Source: Opitutales bacterium (GTDB lineage: Bacteria; Verrucomicrobiota; Verrucomicrobiia; Opitutales; UBA9783). Taken from it: a DNA stretch of 32,000 bases. Positions 22,630-32,000 of this stretch are shown piece after piece. Position 1 is the stretch's first letter. Every line of letters starts with the position of its first letter. Location: NCBI GenBank assembly GCA_046881885.1, contig JBKSMP010000019.1, forward strand, positions 1 to 32,000, given 5' to 3'. The translations under genes and the position numbers were made by a program. Below the pieces are notes generated by a model that saw only the letters and a list, made by a program, of their open reading frames with translations, ran no database searches and had not been told where the DNA came from.

Positions 22630-22902
22630 TTTGGTGCGTTTTTTTTGCTGAATCATACTAAAATTTCAGAAGAATTAAAAAAATCACCTCCGAATATTCG
22701 AAACGGAACAACGGATTTATTTTATAAAGCCTTACAAGCCAACACAACCTTAGAACGATTTCAAATTCTCCACACAAGACTTACCGATTCTCAAAACCCA
22801 ATAACTACAATAGAAGGTCTTCAAAAAGCATTAACATGTTTTAACATAAAACAATAATAAAAGGAATGATTTCGCAAAAAACAACCTCAACAACACTTAT
22901 TG

Positions 22903-22929
22903 TAGGGGGCTTAAGCTCCCTATTTTTTT
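22903..22929 (+). terminator. Rho-independent terminator with no annotated upstream gene
   Basis: Stem TAGGGGGC / GCTCCCTA (8 bp, one G.U), loop TTAA, then seven T (22923-22929). GC-rich stem in an AT-rich spacer. There is no T-run in the opposite orientation. Confidence 0.55.
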
Positions 22930-22990
22930 AAAAGTTGCTTTTTGGTATTGACGTTTGATCGGGAATTAGGCTGAATTTTTAATATTCAAT

Positions 22991-23066
<76 letters not shown>

Positions 23067-23095
23067 TTGAACCCTTAATCGTTAACGAGGTTTTT

Positions 23096-23254
23096 ATGTC
23101 GCAACATTCAAGTTTTAAAAAAAGTGCCGGCAGCACAAATGCCAGCAAGACGGTATTGAAGCGTTTTGAACGCATCGAGTTATTGAAAAAACGTGGCCAA
23201 TGGAAAGAAGGCCAAAGCGTTTTAGGTTTAATGAAAACAAAACCAGAATTATAA
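23096..23254 (+). CDS. Small basic protein (PVC-type, about 52 aa)
   Basis: MSQHSSFKKSAGSTNASKTVLKRFERIELLKKRGQWKEGQSVLGLMKTKPEL. The pattern (S.K...VLKR.ERI..LK....WKEG.SV.GL.K) matches my recollection of the 'small basic protein' family of Planctomycetes and Verrucomicrobia. GAGG lies 5 nt upstream of the ATG. The track ORF's N-terminal part (from 23006) overlaps the tRNA and is discarded. Confidence 0.65.
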   Translation: MSQHSSFKKSAGSTNASKTVLKRFERIELLKKRGQWKEGQSVLGLMKTKPEL

Positions 23255-23260
23255 TTATTT

Positions 23261-23818
23261 ATGGCATCCGCGACAGATATTCGTAAAAGCAATGTGATCA
23301 TGTTCCAAAATGCGCCTCACATCGCGCTCGAAGTGGAACATCGTACACAAGGTCGCCAGTCAGGTTTTGTGCAAGTTACCTTACGTAATCTTATTAGTGG
23401 AGTTTCAACAAAAACAAAGTTCCATTCTAATGACACTGTTGATTTTTGCTTTGTAGAATCACGCGAATTGGAATTTTCGTATATTGATGATATGGGGTAC
23501 CATTTCCTCAATACGGAAACCTATGAAGATGAGGTTATTCCTGCAAATCTATTAAAAGAACAAAAAGATTATTTGATTCAAGGAACGGCTTATTCTGTGC
23601 TTTTCGTTGAGGAAAAACCGGTACAAATCCAATTGCCTCCGTCGCTTGCAATGAAGGTTACAGAAGCTTCTGAAGGTTTACGTGGTGATACTGCAAGCAA
23701 TGCACAAAAGCCAGTTATCGTAGAAACAGGCTTACGCGTTCAGGTACCGCTCTTCATTAAAACCGGCGAGGTTATTCGTGTAAATACAAACGACGGTTCC
23801 TACTTAGGCCGCGCTTAG
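23261..23818 (+). CDS. efp: Elongation factor P
   Basis: 185 aa. Collinear with E. coli EF-P: loop HRTQGRQSGFVQVTLRNL vs VKPGKGQAFARVKLRRL; LRGDTASNAQKPVIVETGLRVQVPLFIKTGEVIRVNT vs [37 protein letters not shown]. Confidence 0.95.
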   Translation: MASATDIRKSNVIMFQNAPHIALEVEHRTQGRQSGFVQVTLRNLISGVSTKTKFHSNDTVDFCFVESRELEFSYIDDMGYHFLNTETYEDEVIPANLLKEQKDYLIQGTAYSVLFVEEKPVQIQLPPSLAMKVTEASEGLRGDTASNAQKPVIVETGLRVQVPLFIKTGEVIRVNTNDGSYLGRA

Positions 23819-23821
23819 TTT

Positions 23822-24745
23822 ATGCCTAAAAAACAGGCAGAAGGTCCAAAACCAAAAACAATGTACACTTTGGTTTTGGATGCTTTACAAGCAGATCGAT
23901 TGCAACAATGGTGCTTAGATCGAGGTTGGGAATCGTTTAGCGTTCAATACGCACAATTTGCTTTTCGCGGCAATGATATTAATGTCGTTTTCTATCAAAA
24001 AAGTGGCAAATTGGTCATACAGGGAAAAAACACCGAAGACTTTGTTTGCAACGTTTTAGAGCCAGAAATTACAAAAGAATTCAAGTTTGGCCTGGAACGA
24101 CTAGAACATCCAGAATGGTTTAGACCCCATGCAGGCATGGATGAAAGCGGCAAAGGAGACTTATTTGGGCCCTTAGTAGCTGCTTGCGTGATTGCAGATG
24201 AATCTCATGTTGATTTTTGGGTAAAAAATGGCCTGAAAGAAAGTAAACAAGTCACCAGTGACGCTCGCGTTTTCAAAATGGAGCAATTGGTACGCGGAAC
24301 TAAGGGCGTGGTTATTGAAGTTGCTTATGCGGGCATGGAAAAATACAATCAACTTTATTCCAAATTTAACAATTTAAATAATCTACTCGCCTGGTTTCAC
24401 GCAAAAGCTCTAGAAGGGGCCTTAAAAAAACGTCCCGTCTCTGAAGGTCTACTAGATCAGTTCACCACTTCTAAACTGGTTCAACGATACTTAAAGATCG
24501 AAAATTTCAATCTACAACAACAAGTACGTGCCGAAGCCGATCCTGTTGTAGCAGCCGCTTCCATCATCGCTAGAGCAGAATATTTACGACAATTAAAACG
24601 CTTGAGTGAACAAGCCGGCATGCCCCTCCCCAAAGGTTGTGGTACGCAAGCTAAAGAAGCCCTACAAAAGCTGATTGCAAGCCAAGGACGCGAAGCTATG
24701 TCGAAATTTATCAAATTACACTTCAAAACATTTCAGGAAGCGTAA
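23822..24745 (+). CDS. rnhC: Ribonuclease HIII
   Basis: 307 aa. N-terminal about 85-aa TBP-like/DUF3378-type domain, followed by an RNase HII/HIII catalytic core with GMDESGKGDLFGPLVAACV. Length and architecture fit HIII rather than HII. Confidence 0.85.
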   Translation: MPKKQAEGPKPKTMYTLVLDALQADRLQQWCLDRGWESFSVQYAQFAFRGNDINVVFYQKSGKLVIQGKNTEDFVCNVLEPEITKEFKFGLERLEHPEWFRPHAGMDESGKGDLFGPLVAACVIADESHVDFWVKNGLKESKQVTSDARVFKMEQLVRGTKGVVIEVAYAGMEKYNQLYSKFNNLNNLLAWFHAKALEGALKKRPVSEGLLDQFTTSKLVQRYLKIENFNLQQQVRAEADPVVAAASIIARAEYLRQLKRLSEQAGMPLPKGCGTQAKEALQKLIASQGREAMSKFIKLHFKTFQEA

Positions 24746-24749
24746 AGTT

Positions 24750-25568
24750 TCAAAAAGAAAAGTGTTTGGAAAAATTTATCCATACATCCAAATCAATTTC
24801 TTCTGCTCGTATTTGGTGAGGAATTTGTTTTTGAGACAAAAATTCCAAAAATCTTTCAGCCACTTCATTAGAAATCGTTTTACAGACACGACCAATTTGC
24901 TGCCGACGATGTAAAAAAACCTGTCGTAAAAACAATTTTACGTCTTTAGGAAATATATAAGCATCTGTACGTTTTACAAGGTGAATAAGCAAAGAATCCA
25001 CTTTAGGTTGCGGATAAAAGCAATTTTTGCCGACACAACATTTATTGGCCAAAGAATAAGCTGCTTGGAGATTAACACTCAAGGCACCAAAATTCTTCGT
25101 ACCTGCTTTTGAAAGCCAACGATTCGCAGCTTCTTTTTGCACCAACAAAACCATGCATTCAGGCAATCGAACTTGCTCCAAAATAAAATCCAACCAAACA
25201 CTCGCAATCGCATAAGGAAGGTTTGCAACAATTTTGTAAGATTTCGATCCATCAAAGGTGCCTATTGGAAATTGCAAAGCATCTTCATTACAAACCGAAA
25301 TAGGAAAGGTTTCTTGAATATATCGAAAAAAACACGCATCTTTTTCTACAGCAAAAACCTGCGCACCGGTTTCAACTAAGGCTCCCGTTAAGGTTCCACA
25401 ACCTGGGCCAATCTCAACAACAACATCTTCAAAGTTCAACTGTGCCCATTCTAGAGATTTTTGAACAAAACGAGCATTAATTAAAAAATTTTGTCCTAAC
25501 TTTCGATTAGGACAAACACCCAAATGAGCCAAAATCTTTCGTGTTTGACTAAGGTCTAAGGCCCACAT
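24750..25568 (-). CDS. rsmA: 16S rRNA (adenine1518/1519-N6)-dimethyltransferase
   Basis: 272 aa. KLGQNFLIN, SAM motif VVEIGPGCGTLT, VANLPY. Convergent with rnhC, with 4 nt between the stops. Confidence 0.9.
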   Translation of the reverse strand: MWALDLSQTRKILAHLGVCPNRKLGQNFLINARFVQKSLEWAQLNFEDVVVEIGPGCGTLTGALVETGAQVFAVEKDACFFRYIQETFPISVCNEDALQFPIGTFDGSKSYKIVANLPYAIASVWLDFILEQVRLPECMVLLVQKEAANRWLSKAGTKNFGALSVNLQAAYSLANKCCVGKNCFYPQPKVDSLLIHLVKRTDAYIFPKDVKLFLRQVFLHRRQQIGRVCKTISNEVAERFLEFLSQKQIPHQIRAEEIDLDVWINFSKHFSF

Positions 25569-25577
25569 AAGGGGATT

Positions 25578-25778
25578 TTATATATTTTCGCGTTTTTGGC
25601 GCAACATGTTATTGAACGCTGCAACCTTTTTCTTCTGACGTCTTACCTCGCAAGGCTTTTCAAAATAACGCTTTGCTTTAACATCGCGCAAAACTCCTTC
25701 GCGATCTAATTTTTTCTTCAAGCGGCGTAAAGCCTTTTCTAAAGGTTCACTTTTGCGCAATTTAACTTCAACGGACAT
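25578..25778 (-). CDS. rpsU: 30S ribosomal protein S21
   Basis: 66 aa from ATG 25778 (MSVEVKLRKSEPLEKALRRLKKKLDREGVLRDVKAKRYFEKP...). AAGGAG lies 10 nt upstream. The track's 12-codon N-terminal extension is rejected. Confidence 0.9.
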   Translation of the reverse strand: MSVEVKLRKSEPLEKALRRLKKKLDREGVLRDVKAKRYFEKPCEVRRQKKKVAAFNNMLRQKRENI

Positions 25779-25812
25779 TGCTATTTTTCTCCTTGGTTTT
25801 ACTAATACAAAC

Positions 25813-25842
25813 AATATTGAGGATCACCCCCAACAAGGTCAA
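25813..25842 (-). promoter_or_regulatory. Candidate rpsU promoter (TTGACC-18 nt-AATATT on the minus strand)
   Basis: Minus-strand TTGACC = 25842-25837 and AATATT = 25818-25813. This would give a leader of about 28 nt containing the AAGGAG SD. Overlaps the sequence discussed as a possible phage end. Confidence 0.3.
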
Positions 25843-25923
25843 GCGTTTTTTCCGAAAAACCTATCGCATTACAAATCCATAAAAACATCACATCCTTCTT
25901 TTTTTATGAGTTTTATACCCCCC

Positions 25924-26592
25924 CTACTCCACGGTAAAAAATTCGGGAAGAATTTCGATTTTATGGATTTTACCTTCAATTTCCTTTGGACAAGGCGTTC
26001 GCAAGCGAAAGGTAACTGAGGAATTGAGGAAAGTGGTTGTATACGAATCTAGCAAAGGATTATTGTGCCGTTCATCTAGCCAATCGCTTGTGGTTAAGGA
26101 AAAATCCTCATTGTTGGCAGCTTCCTTAAAATCCAAGCGCAAGCTTAATGTTTCAGTAAGATCACGCTCTATTGGGCGCCATAAAAGCGGCGAATTTTCG
26201 GTTAACAAAGTCTGTAAAGCAACACTTTGGGGCCAATCCAAGGTACTTTTGGTCGTAAATACTTGAGCAGGATAAAAATGGCATTCGGTTGTAATCTCCA
26301 AATCATCATCTGAAATTTCCGTATGCAAACCATAATCTTTTAAAGCAATCCGTTCCAAAAGTGTAAATGGTGTTGCATCTAAACGTACTGTATTTTGGAT
26401 GGGAAAATCATTAATTTGATAATGATAATTAATGGTAAGCTTTGCGAGAAGCCAATAACAACGCACAATGCTTGGAATATCCAAATGGGTAATGGTATCG
26501 CATTTTTTGGTTCCAAGATGGGGATAAACAAAGCGTCTCGTCGTAACACCGTAAGGCGAAACAAACGTTCTAAAAGGTTTTATTGTAGGCAT
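25924..26592 (-). CDS. Hypothetical protein, last gene of the phage-like cluster
   Basis: 222-aa ORF starting 12 nt after the upstream stop. No motif recognised. Called a gene only from operon context and length. Confidence 0.4.
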   Translation of the reverse strand: MPTIKPFRTFVSPYGVTTRRFVYPHLGTKKCDTITHLDIPSIVRCYWLLAKLTINYHYQINDFPIQNTVRLDATPFTLLERIALKDYGLHTEISDDDLEITTECHFYPAQVFTTKSTLDWPQSVALQTLLTENSPLLWRPIERDLTETLSLRLDFKEAANNEDFSLTTSDWLDERHNNPLLDSYTTTFLNSSVTFRLRTPCPKEIEGKIHKIEILPEFFTVE

Positions 26593-26604
26593 AAATAAAA
26601 AGGT

Positions 26605-28299
26605 TTAGGAAGAAAGCAGCCAAATTTTCTTAAGCACGCCGGATTCGACAACGTCAAACGGCTTTAAAGACATTTGCGTGTTAGGTGGTAAACTGGCAGC
26701 GTCGATAGAAATGGTTTTGTCTGCGCTTTTTAAGGTTAGTTGCGAATAGGTTCCTTGGTTGCAGCTTGAATTGATAATAGGCGTTAAATGCGGAAAATAG
26801 GTACGAGATTGGCCTGAAGCTTTTTGAGCAAAACGCATATGAGGATCATTGGAAATCGTACGCAGCCGATTGGCGCGCATCAATTGAATCAGATCGTTTG
26901 GCCCCAAATGCTTAGGTGCACCAAATTTAAGCTGTACAGTACCGGAATCTAAGTGCATATATTCTTCTTGGATAGGAACTTGAAGCGATTCCCAAGCTTT
27001 ATCGCCATGCAAAAATTTCAGTTTCTTGCCTAAATAAGACGATTCCAATTCCTCGCATTCAAACTGCACCGAACCTTCATGCTGCAAACATTGTGTCGAC
27101 TCGTAGAGGATTTTTGCTAAATTTTGGGGAGGTTTTACGCCTTCCGTAAGGTAAACACAATTGCGATAGGTTTTTGAAACAGCATCCGTACTACAAATTT
27201 TCAATGCAAATAACTGATGTGCTACTTGCGTGTCATTCGTTTTGTAACTAATAGTTGCAGTTATGGTTTCGTATTGCGCTTTACACTGCATCCAAGGTGC
27301 AATGGCTCCCTCCAGCAACTCATTAGGTAATTTCGTCGTTCTCTGAACCGATTCAAGTTGAATATCCGTGTCAGGAATCGCTTGCAAGGTTGGAAAATGC
27401 TGCTTCCACCAATCAACGGAATGGGTTTGAATCGGCTGCACTTGAACCCACTGCTCTTGAATATGCGTATGGGTCCCTTCCAACTCAACTGTCAAAACGA
27501 GCGTATTCATCGCATCGCTAGGGCAATTTTTGGGAAAAACATCAACCGTAGTTGTTTTCCAAGTACCCTTTTCGTTCGAATTTGAATGTTCGTATTTTAA
27601 AACAACACCGTTCAGCTTTAAATCGTTACGTGGCGTTAAAGAAAATTGGCTTAAACGTTGAAGGGATAAAGACATAGATTCTAAAAAGGCTTGCCGAGAA
27701 ATGTTAAACGTAGGCTTTGCAGCCGTGTAATCAAACCAACAAACCGCATCTGGAGTCCATCGAAGAAGCTTCTGGATGACCTCCATACAGCTACAATCTT
27801 TAATGGTTTCGCAAGGAAAGAAAAAATCAAAACCTTCGATTTTCCCCAATTGCAAAGGTGCTCCATGCTGAATACAATACTGAATTATGTTTGTTAAGCA
27901 ATTTTTTGCATCCATAGCCTTTCCGTCCTCTGATTGTCCTAATTGACACAAACTTCTTGGGATCGAAATCATTTCTTCATCGTTAGCACCCTTAAAATAC
28001 TGCCAAGATTGCTGAAAAATAAGATGCTCCAAGTACCAATTGGGACCAGAAACCCTATAGGATTTGCTTTCTTCGTTTACAGAAAATTGACAAGGTATTT
28101 GCACGATTCTTCCGCTAAACCAACGGGCATTATCTTTAAAAATTTCGATAGTGTCATCGCATTTAAAGGGTACGTTATTCGCTTCTGTTTTAAAAGAAAG
28201 TGTATCGCTTCCCTGATTTAAAACACGACGATTTACATCATAAATATACCACTTCGCTAACGGTTTTTTTACCCCCTGATAGCTTAAATACCAAGTCAT
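26605..28299 (-). CDS. Hypothetical phage structural protein (possible tail hub or distal tail component)
   Basis: 564 aa, the largest ORF of the cluster. The N-terminal about 100 aa (WYLSYQGVKKPLAKWYI...DTLSFKT...DDTIEIFKDNARWFSGRIV) and CMEVIQKLLRWTPDAVCWFDYTAAKPTFNI recall tail-hub or distal-tail proteins by pattern only. Not helical like a tape measure. Confidence 0.4.
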   Translation of the reverse strand: MTWYLSYQGVKKPLAKWYIYDVNRRVLNQGSDTLSFKTEANNVPFKCDDTIEIFKDNARWFSGRIVQIPCQFSVNEESKSYRVSGPNWYLEHLIFQQSWQYFKGANDEEMISIPRSLCQLGQSEDGKAMDAKNCLTNIIQYCIQHGAPLQLGKIEGFDFFFPCETIKDCSCMEVIQKLLRWTPDAVCWFDYTAAKPTFNISRQAFLESMSLSLQRLSQFSLTPRNDLKLNGVVLKYEHSNSNEKGTWKTTTVDVFPKNCPSDAMNTLVLTVELEGTHTHIQEQWVQVQPIQTHSVDWWKQHFPTLQAIPDTDIQLESVQRTTKLPNELLEGAIAPWMQCKAQYETITATISYKTNDTQVAHQLFALKICSTDAVSKTYRNCVYLTEGVKPPQNLAKILYESTQCLQHEGSVQFECEELESSYLGKKLKFLHGDKAWESLQVPIQEEYMHLDSGTVQLKFGAPKHLGPNDLIQLMRANRLRTISNDPHMRFAQKASGQSRTYFPHLTPIINSSCNQGTYSQLTLKSADKTISIDAASLPPNTQMSLKPFDVVESGVLKKIWLLSS

Positions 28300-28300
28300 A

Positions 28301-28423
28301 TTAATGCCTCAAATTCTCTAATTGTTCTTTTACTTCTTTTAAGTCCCATTCTAGCGAATGAAGCTTGTCAATTTGCTCATATAAAGCGTCCCAAAGAGCA
28401 TTATTATCTTCAATGGTTTGCAT
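28301..28423 (-). CDS. Small (40 aa) predicted coiled-coil protein
   Basis: MQTIEDNNALWDALYEQIDKLHSLEWDLKEVKEQLENLRH. The ATG at 28423 is preceded by GGAGGAG 7 nt upstream. Overlaps the end of the 132-aa ORF by 14 nt and stops 1 nt before the 564-aa ORF start. The track's 86-aa version is trimmed. Confidence 0.4.
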   Translation of the reverse strand: MQTIEDNNALWDALYEQIDKLHSLEWDLKEVKEQLENLRH

Positions 28424-28808
28424 GTAATTCTCCTCCGTAAATTTCATATAATGAAAAAGAAGCGTTGCCTTTATAATGTGTTTGAACGCGATACAAAGTC
28501 GCTGATTCAAGTTGAAAACATCGATGAGCTTTATCCTCAAAATCAAGCAGCAACACACCATTTGCCTGCTGTAATTCGCTTGCGTGCACTAAGGCATGTT
28601 GAGCAGCGTCTTGCTGAGATCGATGTTTACGACCCACTTCAAAAATTAGCTTCGTTTGCAGATTTCCACGGTTACAGGTTTGGCTAAAGGTCGCTCGAAT
28701 TGCTTTTACAATTTGCAGATTTCTTTGACTAGTAATTTCAAACCGAGAGGGTGTTTCATTCGCCAAATTTCCGCCACACAAAACATGTTCATTTAAGGTG
28801 ATTTTCAT
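28410..28808 (-). CDS. Hypothetical phage protein (132 aa)
   Basis: Starts 1 nt after the upstream stop. No family recognised. The position after the neck genes would normally hold a tail tube or major tail gene, but I cannot support that call. Confidence 0.45.
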   Translation of the reverse strand: MKITLNEHVLCGGNLANETPSRFEITSQRNLQIVKAIRATFSQTCNRGNLQTKLIFEVGRKHRSQQDAAQHALVHASELQQANGVLLLDFEDKAHRCFQLESATLYRVQTHYKGNASFSLYEIYGGELHANH

Positions 28809-28809
28809 A

Positions 28810-29250
28810 TTAAAAAATAAGTGAAAATTGAGAACTTATGAAATGCATTTGAAGGGCCAATCCATTGTCTACTTCTAACCATTTCCAAGGGTTTTTGGGT
28901 TCTAAAATAAAGCAACCTTCCCACTGATCATGCTCAAACTTTTTATGGGAAATAACATAACAAAGTTGTTCTGCAAGATCGAGAAAGGAGCCTTTTTCGG
29001 CACTTAAATGCTTTCGTATGAGCGTACACTGCAAGGACAATTTCTCCCAACATAACTCCGAAATGTTCGAAACGGTTTCTACAGGAAAAGGTGTCGATAG
29101 ATAAAGCTGCAAGGGTTTTAGAGAAGCCGATTTACGCGTTGTCTCCAAAGCATCGAAGGTTTCAGGAATAAATGAAACAGCTTTAAACATAAGCTCTTTT
29201 TGAAGATCTTCGATAATGGTCTTTTGTATACTTTGCAAAATGGGTTTCAT
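28810..29250 (-). CDS. Putative head-closure or tail-terminator-type neck protein
   Basis: 146 aa. The N-terminus MKPILQSIQKTIIEDLQKEL resembles the starts of gpU/gp37/HK97-gp10-type neck proteins. ATGA overlap with the upstream ORF. Assignment rests on position and size. Confidence 0.35.
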   Translation of the reverse strand: MKPILQSIQKTIIEDLQKELMFKAVSFIPETFDALETTRKSASLKPLQLYLSTPFPVETVSNISELCWEKLSLQCTLIRKHLSAEKGSFLDLAEQLCYVISHKKFEHDQWEGCFILEPKNPWKWLEVDNGLALQMHFISSQFSLIF

Positions 29251-29711
29251 AAGCCTCTTAAGGTTTTATAGGTGGTATCTTTTGGACGAAAGCGCACAGC
29301 TTCTAGCTTGTGTACGCGTTTATTTTCTTGGGATTGTTCACGCCAAGACTGCTGAAATTGTTCTAAGCTTGTTCGCGCTTGTTGGGCATTCCGAACTTGA
29401 TCTTCCGACAATTTTAATTCCGGAATACGCGTTTGAAGCGCTTCAATCACCAAGTGACAGGCACCTAATTTACAAGCAGTAGGAACGTGATTACGCGCTA
29501 AGGGATTCGGACGTAGCTTTTCTGGCACCCTTGCTTGAATATAAGCACAAACGTCATTTATAATTGTCTTCAGGGGCGTTTGATGTTCCGTAATGCCATG
29601 ATTCGACAAAAGCGTCACTTGATCATTTGCCAAATAATCTGCAATCGCGTCTGTTTCTAAAAAAATCCAATCTAATGTCGTCATAAGTAGAAGATCGGGA
29701 ATGGCTTTCAT
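29247..29711 (-). CDS. Putative head-tail adaptor (Mu gp36/DUF1320-like)
   Basis: 154 aa, immediately after the capsid candidate. Loose pattern similarity to gp36-type proteins (helical, conserved R/P-rich central segment). Weak. Confidence 0.4.
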   Translation of the reverse strand: MKAIPDLLLMTTLDWIFLETDAIADYLANDQVTLLSNHGITEHQTPLKTIINDVCAYIQARVPEKLRPNPLARNHVPTACKLGACHLVIEALQTRIPELKLSEDQVRNAQQARTSLEQFQQSWREQSQENKRVHKLEAVRFRPKDTTYKTLRGL

Positions 29712-29726
29712 TCCCGAAAATAAGGG

Positions 29727-30632
29727 TTATTCTTGCTTTGCAGTTAATTGAGTAATGTTGGTATTCGATGTCACAACGATATTGCTGTAATGCTCCACGG
29801 TAATATCCGTAAACTTCGTATGCTCTTCCAGGTAAACACGGAAAAGATTACCATCTTCACTCGGCGTTACAAAACGTTTAATATTGGAAGGTTCATCCTT
29901 TAATAAACCGTTTTGAGCATAAAAAGCAAAGATCTCGTTACCATTCAACTCATCTCCCTGGATACCCAAATGTTGCTTTTTAAGTAGCTGGATACCTTCA
30001 ACAAGCAATTTTTCCGACAAATGCTCACGTGACATTTCAGCCGAAATACGAGCTCCTGCGTTATCCTGAAGCGCATAACAATCTTGCCGCAAATACCATG
30101 CCAGTTCTCCAAAAAGCAGACGATTTGGATAAAATCCGTGCTCATAACTTGCCAAAAGCAAAGTTTCTCGGATATCCACGTCCGGCTGACTTTCTGCAGT
30201 CCACGTCTTCTCCACAACATTTGCATTTGTTTTTAACGCAGAAATCGCTCGTCTTAATTCGTTACGATACAAGCGTTTCATAAGCATATGTACGTAACGT
30301 TCCTGCCAATCCTCTCCAACGATATCATCTGTATCTACGCGAATCGTTAAACCTTTATTTAAGGTCTTAGCCTGAACCATAGAACCTGAAAACTCGATGC
30401 GCTTAAAACTGCTACCCGATGCACGCAAATCATCTTGTTCTGAACAAAAGATTTCGTCTGTTTCCGATTTTTTGTATTCAAAACGACGGGCAACAGGTAC
30501 TTTAGGTGCAATGAAATTAAGTAAATTCTCAACACCTTCCGTATCGGTCCAATTCTTTGTAAATTGCGTCAAAACCTCCGAATAATGGTTCTGATTAAAC
30601 TGACTTTCTTTTGCTTGTGTAAGTGTTTCCAT
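29727..30632 (-). CDS. Putative major capsid protein (HK97-fold candidate)
   Basis: 301 aa. Position is protease, then DUF2190-like, then this ORF. A long basic helix DWQERYVHMLMKRLYRNELRRAISALK resembles the spine-helix region of gpE-like capsid proteins. Not obviously Mu gpT-like. Confidence 0.55.
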   Translation of the reverse strand: METLTQAKESQFNQNHYSEVLTQFTKNWTDTEGVENLLNFIAPKVPVARRFEYKKSETDEIFCSEQDDLRASGSSFKRIEFSGSMVQAKTLNKGLTIRVDTDDIVGEDWQERYVHMLMKRLYRNELRRAISALKTNANVVEKTWTAESQPDVDIRETLLLASYEHGFYPNRLLFGELAWYLRQDCYALQDNAGARISAEMSREHLSEKLLVEGIQLLKKQHLGIQGDELNGNEIFAFYAQNGLLKDEPSNIKRFVTPSEDGNLFRVYLEEHTKFTDITVEHYSNIVVTSNTNITQLTAKQE

Positions 30633-30634
30633 AA

Positions 30635-31069
30635 TTATTTAACTTTAAGGTTACGTGGTAATGAGGTAAGGACTTCGATACATCCATCTTTTTGTCCATC
30701 TTCGAGCGCTAAACCAATGATACAATAGGTACCGGCCTCAGACGGTAAAGCTTGAGCATGTCCATTATCTGCAAGACAAAGCAACTGACCGGCTTTAACC
30801 TTCGAAGCAATACGAATTTTAGCCGTTCGAGCACACGAAGAAAGGGGTTGCACGCAGATAAGATCGTCCTTTACTTCCGCATTATACTGCGAAACTCCCC
30901 AAGGAATTTCTGTTTTAGGACAGATTTTGACATAATTTGCATCGCCATCAAAACAAACCAAGCAATACGCTTGTAAATCGTCTGTTTTGGAACGTTTCGT
31001 TAACATTCCTTCGTGTACCCCAACGGCGTTATGCGCATTGGCCATAATTATTTTTTTAGTTGTTTTCAT
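30635..31069 (-). CDS. DUF2190-like protein (head decoration or cement candidate)
   Basis: 144 aa (or 136 aa from MANAHN). Beta-rich with a G-containing C-terminal block (AGQLLCLADNGHAQ...GLALEDGQKDGCIEV), typical of DUF2190 genes that precede capsid genes. Confidence 0.45.
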   Translation of the reverse strand: MKTTKKIIMANAHNAVGVHEGMLTKRSKTDDLQAYCLVCFDGDANYVKICPKTEIPWGVSQYNAEVKDDLICVQPLSSCARTAKIRIASKVKAGQLLCLADNGHAQALPSEAGTYCIIGLALEDGQKDGCIEVLTSLPRNLKVK

Positions 31070-31075
31070 AAGAAA

Positions 31076-31657
31076 TTAGATATTATTTTTTTTAAAAACT
31101 GCATTCCAAGCTTCCGGATAACTTTCTCCAGTGGCTTTCATACGCTGATAAACTTTTTGAACAAAATTTAAAATTGCTACTTTTTCGGAACGTTTCTGGA
31201 CTGATTGCACCGGACAACCTTGCGTATTATTTGACTTATAAATCGGCTCTACCGGTAAATTCGGCGTATTAGTAAGGCCTACCGAAAGAAGCTTTTTGGG
31301 CACAAAGTGATCGTTGACTTCCTCCATTTCCCAGCGCGGAGACACATAACGATATCGTCCATTATCTATCAATTCTCGACCAGATTCTGTCCAATCTACT
31401 TGGATCCAAAGTCCGTTATCCTTTAAGCAAAAACGTCGAACATAGCCGTAAACAGTCATATTCATATGTTCAGGGAATTGCTGAAAATAGGCATCATCGG
31501 GATGACCCACATAAATAGGAATTTTCGTAAAACCAAAACGAAAGCGCCAGGTTTGCGTTTTCTTTACGCAAGCTTTCAGGGTTTCCTGCGATAAGTATTG
31601 CTTACCCAATCGATGGTAAAATTGTCCAAACGGTGATAATTGTATCCAAGTTTTCAT
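31076..31657 (-). CDS. Mu gpI-like phage protease (Mu-like prophage I protein family)
   Basis: 193 aa. Family blocks WIQLSPFGQFYH, IPIYVGHPDD, DNGLWIQVDWTESGRELIDNGRYRYVSPRW, SVGLTNTPNLP. ATGA overlap with the upstream ORF. Confidence 0.75.
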   Translation of the reverse strand: MKTWIQLSPFGQFYHRLGKQYLSQETLKACVKKTQTWRFRFGFTKIPIYVGHPDDAYFQQFPEHMNMTVYGYVRRFCLKDNGLWIQVDWTESGRELIDNGRYRYVSPRWEMEEVNDHFVPKKLLSVGLTNTPNLPVEPIYKSNNTQGCPVQSVQKRSEKVAILNFVQKVYQRMKATGESYPEAWNAVFKKNNI

Positions 31658-32000
31658 GATTTTTTCAATAAGTCTTCGTGGTTAGCTGGGGGATTGATGC
31701 CAAAATGCTCGCGAACATCGTTCAAACTGAGTTCGACCCCCATATCCCATAAGGTTTTAATAATGTTCAAATCGTTATTGAGATTTTTGTTTGGAGACGT
31801 CTTGAGCTGAAAATAAGCCTTAGGATGCTCTGTACCCTCCAAATACTTCAAAACGCAACGATCGATTTGCTCATGCAAGGTATCGGAAATCATTTGTGCA
31901 TCATCTTCTTCCAATAGATCTCGTTCAGCGTTTTGCACCGAACTTCCAAGGCCATGCTGCTGCCCCAAAGTCGTTAAGTCGGATCCACGCCATAAAGCCG
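31654..32000 (-). CDS. C-terminal part of a phage portal protein (Mu gp29/DUF935-like), 5'-truncated by the window
   Basis: The frame stays open to position 32000, so the TTG at 31968 in the track is an artefact. The C-terminal GVELSLNDVREHFGINPPANHEDLL resembles the G(L/V)...(F)G(I)P.P ending I recall for DUF935 portals. Lies directly upstream of the gpI-like gene. Confidence 0.5.
   Translation of the reverse strand, partial: ALWRGSDLTTLGQQHGLGSSVQNAERDLLEEDDAQMISDTLHEQIDRCVLKYLEGTEHPKAYFQLKTSPNKNLNNDLNIIKTLWDMGVELSLNDVREHFGINPPANHEDLLKKS

Follow-up and report, generated by a model that had tools for sequence, protein, structure and literature searches.

The Mu proteins relevant to this study comprise the portal protein gp29, gpI, gp36, the tube protein gp40 and the hub protein gp44. 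A region noted in 'Candidatus Marcellius' and other Verrucomicrobia, whose content was limited to TerL, a pair of Mu-like proteins and short hypothetical genes, was called a degraded prophage, and the hypothetical genes, 300–450 bp in length, had their best hits in Verrucomicrobia (Nixon et al., 2019; PMC6920513). Compared by description only, the layout of this defective prophage agrees with that of the cluster presented here, although it was read as a degraded remnant and the paper holds no analysis of conservation, selection or folds. Verrucomicrobia bacterium GWF2_51_19, which is listed in the same paper (PMC6920513), carries a related locus (L074).

The complete relatives of the cluster are temperate phages of 32–40 kb (IMG/VR contigs, 33–40 kb). 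Akkermansia phage DTMo-2021a (CP084202.1, 31.9 kb), whose host belongs to the same phylum as the host of the 32,000-nucleotide stretch of DNA analyzed here (the window), encodes a tyrosine integrase, an Amidase_3 endolysin, a collagen-like fibre and a 714-aa hub. The family profiles matched its portal (5e-28), capsid protein (2e-14), adaptor (1e-8) and hub (7e-38), and its genes follow the same order, the hub being in the penultimate position. However, this phage is complete and temperate, its early genes span about 20 kb, a 615-aa coiled-coil protein precedes its hub, and its identity to the window is about 33% and limited to a short segment.

The window originates from a gut-associated Opitutales bacterium (Verrucomicrobiota, PVC superphylum). 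An earlier sequence-only reading had guessed that the host might be chlamydia-like or PVC; the latter is correct, and the host is not a chlamydia. Of a phage-derived cluster of 14 genes and approximately 9.2 kb, the distal two-thirds fall within the window, and the whole element was read from related contigs. It begins with a membrane protein (g01, predicted from hydropathy), two small proteins and TerL (g04), followed by the portal (g05), protease (g06), DUF2190/cement-like protein (g07), capsid protein (g08), gp36-like adaptor (g09), neck protein (g10) and proteins of 132, 40, 564 and 222 aa (g11–g14). Among species-representative genomes, 63 loci were listed, nearly all in Verrucomicrobiota or Kiritimatiellia; this listing covers cluster-carrying genomes. 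The compact cluster forms one monophyletic clade of about 17 species-level genomes from guts, with one copy per genome, and its sister is a fibre-bearing type.

The ten coupled minus-strand ORFs described by the sequence-only reading were all recovered, with junctions of −14 to +15 nt and ATGA overlaps at 31654–31657 and 29247–29250, and its assignments of the head genes were borne out. The interrupted ORF at the window end (g05, 31654–32000) encodes the C-terminal 114 aa of a Mu-type portal (PF06074 Portal_Mu/DUF935; E value, 4.9e-13), which at full length has 397 aa in L002 and L080. The 193-aa prohead protease (g06, 31076–31657; PF10123 Mu-like_Pro; E value, 5.8e-15; phrog_328; E value, 2.3e-18) corresponds to Mu gpI over the N-terminal half of the latter. 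The scaffold-like C-terminal half is absent, whereas the proteases of other subclades, at 270–383 aa, carry it according to length comparison. The portal and protease genes are not separated by a Mu F-like gene. The 144-aa g07 protein (30635–31069) is a DUF2190/phage-cement-like head protein (phrog_673; E value, 1e-9) whose relatives match PF09956 Phage_cement_2, formerly DUF2190 (E value, 6e-5); its role may be either decoration or scaffold. The 301-aa major capsid protein (g08, 29727–30632) matched phrog_1005 weakly in the window (E value, 6e-4), and members of its family match this major-head family at an E value of 1.4e-26. Of the two neck-size proteins, the 154-aa g09 (29247–29711) was identified as a Mu gp36-like head–tail adaptor from the matches of family members to PF07030 Phage_Mu_Gp36 (E value, 1e-4) and the head–tail adaptor family phrog_195 (E value, 1.3e-6). 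The 146-aa g10 (28810–29250) has no family, but its position is conserved in 58 loci, and in soil relatives it bears a C-terminal CHB_HEX_C/Fn3_assoc domain. Together with TerL, these genes complete the DNA-packaging head set of TerL, portal, protease, cement/scaffold-like protein and capsid protein; no recognisable small terminase was identified in the cluster.

The tail gene set is minimal, consisting of a tube-fold protein, a 40-aa peptide, a hub-spike of the VgrG/gp44 type and a fast-evolving distal protein. Sequence libraries returned no match for g11, g13 or g14, and the sequence-only reading had placed none of the distal ORFs in a tail family and had found no tube, sheath or tape measure. 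Sheath and long tape measure are indeed missing from the window and the compact clade, but AlphaFold models searched with Foldseek assign a tail-tube fold to the 132-aa protein and identify the 564-aa protein as a hub/spike. The model of g11 (28410–28808; pLDDT 84) matched tube proteins of eCIS, myophages and siphophages, the Dit N-domain and Hcp, as well as lambda gpV, T4 gp19 and chains of 115–117 aa in Mu tail entries, with a best E value of 3e-4 and a probability of 1.0. The model of g13 (26605–28299; pLDDT 82) identifies it as a central hub-spike of the gp27/Mu gp44/VgrG/Afp8 type: in the PDB, it matched eCIS baseplate/spike entries (E values, 7e-14 to 1e-11), the MuSo2 43 kDa tail protein (2.7e-11), Mu gp44 (3.6e-10) and VgrG1 (2.6e-9). 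At E ≤ 1e-30, the g13 family comprises 1,562 clusters. The distal proteins are thus of tube-fold and hub type, and the nozzle and adaptor folds of podoviruses were rejected for them. Between the two genes lies the 40-aa peptide g12 (28301–28423), which is called in all related contigs and looks helical by eye; at its start it shares 14 nt with the end of g11, and its stop is 1 nt before g13. In both the compact and the fibre-bearing types, an ORF of 38–53 aa ending in (Q/R)(L/I)xNLR is found directly upstream of the hub gene, and this conserved peptide occupies the place expected for the tape measure. The last gene, g14 (25924–26592, 222 aa), always follows g13 and had no match in Pfam, PHROGs or PDB sequences; it evolves fast, retaining 26–35% amino acid identity where g13 retains 44–52%. 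No fibre or recognisable receptor-binding protein was found in the compact type.

A G + C-rich hairpin (29695–29717, minus strand) directly follows the stop codon of the capsid gene and overlaps the start of g09. Nearly all related loci have a hairpin at the matching position, with differing stem sequences. The sequence-only reading had placed the end of the cluster about 110 bp from rpsU and had judged its composition to be like that of flanking core genes. Both hold: the distance from the last stop codon to rpsU is 109 nt when measured to the start of its longest ORF and 145 nt when measured to the ATG that is called in relatives, and the G + C content is 0.37–0.41 in the cluster and 0.38–0.43 in the flanks. 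Where the element meets the host rpsU block (25858–25923), the sequence contains a strain-specific rearrangement breakpoint, as indicated by the ends of identity: identity to L002 stops at 25920, and identity to the rpsU-side contigs L078, L081 and L084 stops at 25858. The chromosomal location varies between subclades and between strains 98–99% identical to the window; either rearrangement of the host chromosome or some remaining mobility could explain this. The element co-diverges with its flanks. Between L015 and L002/L004, DNA identity is about 88% and colinearity extends over the element and the flank on either side, and co-divergence was observed in several subclades, down to 42–73% flank protein identity. 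The flanks of compact loci are housekeeping genes, namely an ATP/ADP translocase (TLC family), prsA, lpxD, bamA, ligA, accBC, FloA, a class I aminoacyl-tRNA synthetase, AhpC and LepA.

All 14 ORFs were intact in 16 of the 17 complete compact loci, the remaining locus lacking g02 only, and gene lengths vary by only a few residues across 49–97% identity. Between L002 and L015, dN/dS was 0.02–0.16 in 13 genes and reached 0.33 in the peptide region, at a dS of 0.24–0.79, with TerL (0.07) and portal (0.018) among the most conserved genes and the capsid gene at 0.027. The flanking core genes gave a dS of 0.59–0.74, which the dS of the cluster genes matches, and a dN/dS of 0.02–0.12. Purifying selection on the cluster is therefore as strong as on the neighboring core genes, and cluster genes remain intact even at saturated dS. 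The compact cluster contains no integrase, transposase, repressor, replication or endolysin genes, and no excised or circular copy of the element was found. Because of the lack of integration, replication and lysogeny genes, the vertical inheritance and the strong purifying selection, the cluster seems domesticated and GTA-like rather than an ordinary prophage. It is probably a GTA-like particle locus that the host has kept and whose ancestor was a temperate phage with a head of Mu type. The sequence-only reading had offered a domesticated GTA-like locus or a capsid-forming satellite as one of its interpretations. The former fits because of the conserved gene order, the single copy per genome, the co-divergence with the flanks and the housekeeping-low dN/dS; the latter found no support because an integrase and a replication module are absent.

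For such a locus, the 14 genes would be transcribed as a single operon, in which the hairpin 3′ of the capsid gene may adjust the ratio of capsid to neck protein. Small heads would be packed with DNA by TerL, and a trimeric hub-spike would be held directly below the portal by the adaptor, the neck protein and a single ring or a few rings of the tube-fold protein. The 40-aa peptide may plug or prime the hub, substituting for a tape measure, and the resulting tail would be very short and non-contractile. Release may be aided by g01, the predicted membrane protein, and the 222-aa g14 may touch the target cell. Since replication and integration are beyond the element, its particles would most likely carry host DNA and bring it to related cells.

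A phage-like particle with a purpose other than transfer, such as a PBSX-like killer or a puncturing or delivery device against competitors or a eukaryotic host cell, is an alternative product of the cluster, with any packaged DNA being a by-product. Contractile injection systems provide the best fold matches of the tail, which is in essence a tube ring bearing a VgrG/Afp8-like spike, the distal protein evolves as quickly as expected for target recognition, and the adjoining ATP/ADP translocase hints at a host-associated lifestyle. However, the strong conservation of TerL and portal argues that DNA packaging itself is under selection, a contractile power stroke is precluded by the absence of a sheath, and neither toxin nor effector genes were found within or beside the cluster, so that we consider this explanation unlikely. 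Capsid-forming satellites are a known kind of element, and a helper-dependent satellite or cryptic element could make its own heads and tail tips while a co-resident phage supplied replication, lysis, fibres or induction. This would explain the missing lysis, fibre and regulatory genes, and the related complete phages in the phylum could serve as helpers. It is nonetheless rather improbable: no integrase, excisionase, primase, replication gene or att-like repeat was found at the cluster, the single copy per genome co-diverges with its flanks over deep divergence, and no compact-type copy was present in the viral contig collection.

Two further explanations are already contradicted by the data. 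The sequence-only reading had also suggested a transposable prophage with a short tail, of which the cluster would be the distal arm, and the portal, protease, adaptor and hub are all of Mu type, with the portal gene interrupted by the window end, so that the early region of an active Mu-like or otherwise complete prophage might have lain past 32000. Related contigs contain there the terminase that this reading had proposed to look for, TerL, and none of the MuA/MuB-like transposase, repressor or Mu F-like genes named with it. In contigs 88–99% identical to the window, the cluster begins just three small genes before TerL and adjoins the ATP/ADP translocase and an aminotransferase; contigs 95–99% identical pass through TerL and these small genes directly into host genes, and L080, at 100% identity to the window, runs colinear into portal and TerL. 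No Mu A/B, repressor or integrase occurs in any compact locus examined, no transposase was found in any locus, and a transposable prophage was also rejected because a tyrosine integrase is what the only complete relative found among phages employs. For the closest relatives, this explanation is contradicted and retains hardly any probability. An inert remnant of a degraded prophage, as which the similar-looking 'Ca. Marcellius' cluster was interpreted (Nixon et al., 2019; PMC6920513), would be consistent with the loss of most early and late phage functions. Intact ORFs in nearly all complete compact loci, a dN/dS of 0.02–0.16 at a dS of about 0.6, persistence at saturated dS, conserved gene lengths and tight translational coupling contradict it, and it is very unlikely.

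The GTA-like locus favored here resembles RcGTA of Rhodobacter capsulatus in being a chromosomal head–tail cluster without replication, integration and lysogeny genes, in its long vertical inheritance under purifying selection, in its host-like composition and in its hub-type tail tip; the RcGTA neck structure 6toa was also among the tube-fold matches of g11. In contrast, the gene families are non-homologous, since portal and protease are of Mu type and the adaptor is of the gp36 family here, as opposed to an HK97-like set in RcGTA, and RcGTA comprises about 15 kb and 17 genes, compared with about 9.2 kb and 14 genes. The compact cluster has no tape measure, distal tail protein, megatron or fibre genes, RcGTA belongs to another phylum (Alphaproteobacteria), and DNA transfer is a prediction for the present cluster. 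With Mu, MuSo2 and FluMu, the cluster shares sequence matches to Portal_Mu, Mu-like_Pro and Phage_Mu_Gp36, the hub matches Mu gp44 and the MuSo2 43 kDa protein, and g11 matches the 115–117-aa chains of Mu baseplate and trunk entries at the fold level. Unlike Mu, it is not mobile and lacks MuA/MuB transposase, repressor, Mu F-like protein, sheath, tape measure, gp43, the gp45–48 baseplate wedge and fibres, and its hub has a VgrG-like length of 564 aa, compared with 379 aa in Mu. PBSX-like defective prophages and phage-tail-like bacteriocins are similarly chromosomally fixed, phage-derived particle loci without viral propagation. They possess a sheath, tube, tape measure, full baseplate and lysis genes, whereas of these components only a tube-fold protein and a hub are present here; tailocins, however, are headless, and the cluster retains a complete packaging head.

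The ten minus-strand ORFs that the sequence-only reading had described were all located where it had placed them, and the junctions of −14 to +15 nt and the ATGA overlaps at 31654–31657 and 29247–29250 were reproduced. The G + C content of the cluster (0.37–0.41) equals that of the flanks, as the composition sampled in that reading had implied. Its head assignments were borne out by profile searches: the portal (g05) matched Portal_Mu/DUF935 (E value, 4.9e-13), and the protease (g06) matched Mu-like_Pro (E value, 5.8e-15) and phrog_328 of the PHROGs database. In PHROGs, the 144-aa protein (g07) matched phrog_673, and the 301-aa protein (g08) showed a weak match to the major head protein phrog_1005 (E value, 6e-4). 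When diverse members of each family were also scanned, support was stronger than for the window proteins alone. The capsid family matched phrog_1005 at 1.4e-26, members of the 144-aa family matched PF09956 (Phage_cement_2, formerly DUF2190), and members of the 154-aa family (g09) matched PF07030 (Phage_Mu_Gp36) and the head–tail adaptor phrog_195. A Mu-type head module is thus present, with the DUF935 portal (PF06074), the gpI protease (PF10123), and the gp36 adaptor (PF07030) all matched. The distal ORFs proved as unplaceable by sequence as had been stated, with four distal proteins lacking a usable sequence-level match. Pfam and PHROGs gave nothing usable for the 132-, 146-, 564-, and 222-aa proteins, and profile searches of PDB sequences returned no match for g11, g14, or protein X, an additional protein of more distant loci.

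The complete cluster was read from contigs 98–99% identical to the window, found by exact look-up of the capsid protein. It is approximately 9.2 kb long and contains 14 genes, beginning with g01, g02, and g03 (146, 89, and 106 aa). These are followed by TerL (440 aa; Terminase_6N/6C), the portal (397 aa), the protease (193 aa), and proteins of 144, 301, 154, 146, 132, 40, 564, and 222 aa, in this order. The window's exact strain was followed beyond position 32000 as far as TerL by means of L080, an identical contig that extends approximately 1.8 kb past this position. g01 has one strongly hydrophobic segment, and probably more, and is a predicted membrane protein; its assignment as a holin is only a guess. 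No Mu F-like, transposase, integrase, repressor, replication, or endolysin genes were present in the complete cluster of close relatives, and integrase, transposase, repressor, and replication genes were absent from every locus examined of the compact type, the window's own architecture. Neither att-like nor terminal repeats were detected in a search for them. In close relatives, one flank carries ATP/ADP translocase and aminotransferase genes, and the other carries prsA–lpxD–ompH–bamA. The ATP/ADP translocase gene (PF03219, TLC) is the immediate left neighbor in the related loci L004 (1639–3147), L015 (1409–2917), and L016. A free-living gut bacterium would not usually have this protein, which is a hint of an energy-parasitic or host-associated lifestyle.

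Several features of the head and neck genes varied among the related loci. In the window's subclade, g06 (31076–31657 in the window) is 193–211 aa long, corresponding to the N-terminal half of Mu gpI, and in other subclades (L019–L029 and L033–L076) it is 270–383 aa long. The scaffold-like C-terminal half seems to have been lost in the window's subclade, and this loss might alter head size. The g10 neck protein appears to be exposed at the particle surface, as suggested by its homologs of approximately 225 aa in soil Verrucomicrobia (L053, L056, and L063), which bear a C-terminal carbohydrate-binding-type domain (CHB_HEX_C/Fn3_assoc). A G + C-rich hairpin at 29695–29717 on the minus strand lies directly 3′ of the capsid stop codon. 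Almost every related locus (L002–L076) has a hairpin at this position, but the stem sequences differ, so that the structure is conserved and the sequence is not. This hairpin may act as an attenuator or stabilize the mRNA and thereby set how much capsid protein is made relative to neck protein. Promoter and terminator scans gave results at chance level.

Structural models assigned two of the distal proteins. The AlphaFold model of the 564-aa protein (g13; 29 homologs as input; pLDDT, 82) matched central baseplate hub/spike proteins: eCIS baseplate and spike entries (E value, 7e-14 to 1e-11), the MuSo2 43 kDa tail protein (2.7e-11), Mu gp44 (3.6e-10), and VgrG1 (2.6e-9), as well as diffocin, pyocin, and siphophage Tal proteins. 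The model of the 132-aa protein (g11; pLDDT, 84) has a tail-tube fold and matched eCIS tubes, the phage 812 tube, the N-domain of 80alpha Dit, Hcp, lambda gpV, T4 gp19, and 115–117-aa chains of Mu tail entries. Because of this fold, the claim of the sequence-only reading that no tail tube is recognizable fails; its statement that there is neither a sheath nor a long tape measure holds, with only four ORFs after the neck. The podovirus tail that it had considered was not recovered either, as the 564-aa model fits hubs of the gp27/gp44/VgrG type, not nozzles, and the 132-aa model fits tube proteins. Neither model corresponded to a nozzle, tail-needle, or tailspike fold. As a contractile tail the set is incomplete: a tube fold and a hub were found, and sheath, tape measure, and wedge genes were absent.

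Immediately before the hub gene, an ORF of 38–53 aa, helical by eye and ending in ..(Q/R)(L/I)xNLR, occurs in both the compact and the fiber-bearing types of locus. Judged by this sequence pattern, the 40-aa ORF of the window (g12) is a real gene. It occupies the position of a tape measure gene, and we infer that the peptide substitutes for the tape measure. A frameshift fusion of g11 and g12 was rejected, as the upstream open stretch of the g12 frame differs greatly between lineages. The 222-aa gene (g14) is always located 3′ of the hub gene and evolves much faster than the other genes. In a termite-gut subclade (L013, 12526–15567; L014; L025; L031), two to three extra genes on the same strand (266, 596, and 130 aa) follow the 222-aa homolog. 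They share 67–78% identity compared with 88–97% for their neighbors, are absent from the sister genome L026, and may be accessory fiber genes.

A scan with the 564-aa family over one genome per GTDB species yielded 63 loci, nearly all of them in Opitutales, Puniceicoccales, Methylacidiphilales, Chthoniobacterales, Verrucomicrobiae, and Kiritimatiellia. The closest loci (97 and 90% identity) were in uncultured Opitutales MAGs. The remainder of the window is ordinary chromosome (mutS, pfk, fabD, lepA, dnaN, lpxB, secretin, gyrA/B, efp, rnhC, ksgA, and rpsU). From this distribution and these core genes, the host is a member of the PVC superphylum; the chlamydia-like identity proposed alongside it does not stand. 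Hub relatives were also found in MAGs assigned outside Verrucomicrobiota, namely, L060 (Conexibacter), L066 (Steroidobacteraceae), and L077 (Bryobacteraceae), the first two of which are short contigs (2–3 kb). They could be contaminants introduced by binning or could reflect a genuinely wider host range.

A total of 77 loci were mapped with iterated profiles for each of the 14 families. The compact type (type A) comprised the window and, at species level, approximately 17 genomes from the guts of humans, ruminants, horses, and termites, with one locus per genome. All 14 genes were present in 16 of 17 complete loci, and g02 was missing in the other one. In the fiber-bearing type (type B), g11 and g12 are separated by two additional genes, one of 137 aa and one for a large protein of 450–1,000 aa, whose N-domain is conserved and whose C-terminal part is variable and fiber-like. 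More distant loci (type D) carry protein X (approximately 310 aa) between g10 and g11, and in some of them, g11 and the hub are up to 8 kb apart, with a 528–544-aa coiled-coil protein encoded in the interval. In a neighbor-joining tree of portal, capsid, and hub, type A formed one clade, sister to type B, and type D fell outside. Distant relatives with two or three hub-gene copies per genome (L059, L069, and L071 in Kiritimatiellia MAG STD1_155; L054 and L057 in CAYYWX01) are probably ordinary prophages.

Inheritance of the element was assessed by comparison with L015, a 137-kb contig of another species that is colinear with L002/L004 across the element and both flanks at approximately 88% DNA identity. 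Between L002 and L015, 13 of the 14 element genes had dN/dS of 0.02–0.16 and dS of 0.35–0.79, and the g12 region had a dN/dS of 0.33 and a dS of 0.24. Six flanking housekeeping genes had dN/dS of 0.02–0.12 and dS of 0.59–0.74, so that the dS of the element is similar to that of its flanks. Co-divergence of element and flanks was also observed in other subclades, down to 42–73% flank protein identity. The flanks of other type A loci included FloA, M50 peptidase, class I aminoacyl-tRNA synthetase, AhpC, LepA, accBC, and ligA. By these measures, the element bears the signature of domestication. Adjacency to prsA as a synteny common to the compact and fiber-bearing types was dropped, the two “prsA” proteins being 28% identical.

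The order efp, rnhC, ksgA, rpsU, element in the window is 100% identical in the independent assemblies L080 and L085. Strains 98.3% identical over the efp–rpsU block have a different gene after rpsU, and in the same samples the element adjoins prsA. Identity to the prsA-type contigs ends approximately 4 nt past the g14 stop codon, and identity to the rpsU-type contigs ends at 25858. The 3-kb block at 22877–25858 contains tRNA-Thr (22991–23066), efp, rnhC, ksgA, and rpsU, and its neighbors on both sides differ between strains: gyrB and the element in the window, L080, and L085; an MFS transporter gene and an unrelated plus-strand gene in L078, L081, and L084. The junction is therefore read as a host genome rearrangement; some element-associated recombination is a possible alternative. 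Such rearrangement appears to be rapid in this host.

Among phages, Akkermansia phage DTMo-2021a is a complete relative. Its 31.9-kb genome encodes a tyrosine integrase, Amidase_3, a collagen-like fiber, a Mu-like protease, and a 714-aa hub. Relatives in IMG/VR shared at most 39% identity and lay on contigs of 33–40 kb; the compact type was not found in IMG/VR. The hub family comprises 1,562 clusters (50% identity) at E ≤ 1e-30. In tblastn searches against 50,697 phage records, the hub had one weak match, and the capsid protein had none.

Taken together, the particle genes account for the whole of a packaging head and for an adaptor and a neck protein. For the tail they supply a single tube-fold protein, a short conserved peptide, a hub-spike, and a distal protein that is variable. 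The cluster is under strong selection and has no means of autonomous propagation. The operon would produce heads that contain DNA and bear a very short, non-contractile tail; the hub-spike would dock almost directly beneath the neck. Since the element can neither replicate nor integrate, the cargo would most likely be host DNA, which would make the cluster a gene transfer agent (GTA)-like system. Two features expected of a GTA were found: a chromosomal, phage-like cluster of 14 structural and packaging genes between housekeeping genes, and vertical inheritance under purifying selection, indicated by dS parity, dN/dS, co-divergence, and monophyly of the compact type. The cluster is probably, with some reservation, GTA-like. 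A particle that kills or delivers, toward which the eCIS and VgrG matches of the hub model point, is unlikely; against it stands the strong conservation of TerL and the portal.

The capsid-forming satellite put forward by the sequence-only reading is not supported, as integrase and replication genes are absent, tail-tip parts are encoded, and the distribution is vertical; we hold dependence on a helper to be rather improbable. That reading's other proposal, a transposable prophage, agrees with the Mu-type head, but MuA/MuB, a repressor, and two element ends were not found in the compact loci examined, and relatives 88–99% identical are flanked upstream by the ATP/ADP translocase and aminotransferase genes. 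That the window holds one arm of a complete Mu-like prophage is hardly credible. An inert remnant, to which the missing propagation genes could be attributed, is very improbable; the selection and the flank co-divergence are at odds both with a remnant in decay and with a prophage that was mobile until recently.

Beyond the GTA-like reading itself, we tentatively propose, as a possibility somewhat short of probable, an independently domesticated GTA family that is ancestral to a gut Opitutales clade and the first in Verrucomicrobiota. Its Mu-type, DNA-filled head would carry a tail without tape measure or sheath, in which one tube-fold ring and a VgrG-like spike would be combined with a helical plug of 40 aa. 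It would have arisen by stepwise reduction from a complete phage of 32–40 kb through a fiber-bearing chromosomal cluster to the compact 14-gene cluster. The graded series of loci would then be a rare natural record of stepwise domestication. If particles are made, the locus would represent a new origin of GTA-like elements in abundant uncultured Verrucomicrobiota of human, ruminant, horse, and termite guts, with a bearing on gene flow in these genomes. The architecture, if true, would define a minimal tail that needs neither tape measure nor sheath, and would make testable the long-standing question of the smallest tube and hub set that docks on a portal and delivers DNA.

Literature searches turned up no specific account of a GTA or a GTA-like element from Verrucomicrobia. 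To our knowledge, a tail of tube-fold ring, helical plug, and VgrG-like spike is undescribed for any phage or GTA. Very few particles of the GTA kind, which package DNA and were domesticated independently, are known to us, none of them in the PVC superphylum and none on a Mu-type head. A cluster in “Ca. Marcellius,” similar by description only, was read as a degraded prophage (PMC6920513), an interpretation that the GTA-like reading would correct.

The cluster departs in defining features from both a podovirus-type tail and a cf-PICI-like satellite. The latter combines an integrase/regulatory/replication module with a head-only module and occurs sporadically, whereas the cluster has no integrase or replication genes. 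It shares Mu-type head and hub proteins with Mu, but is without transposition genes or a contractile tail. The tape measure and the megatron-size gene of RcGTA have no counterpart in the cluster, and the similarity in tube and hub is generic and at the fold level. The two would be alike in function without being homologous, as the portal, protease, and adaptor of the cluster belong to Mu-type families.
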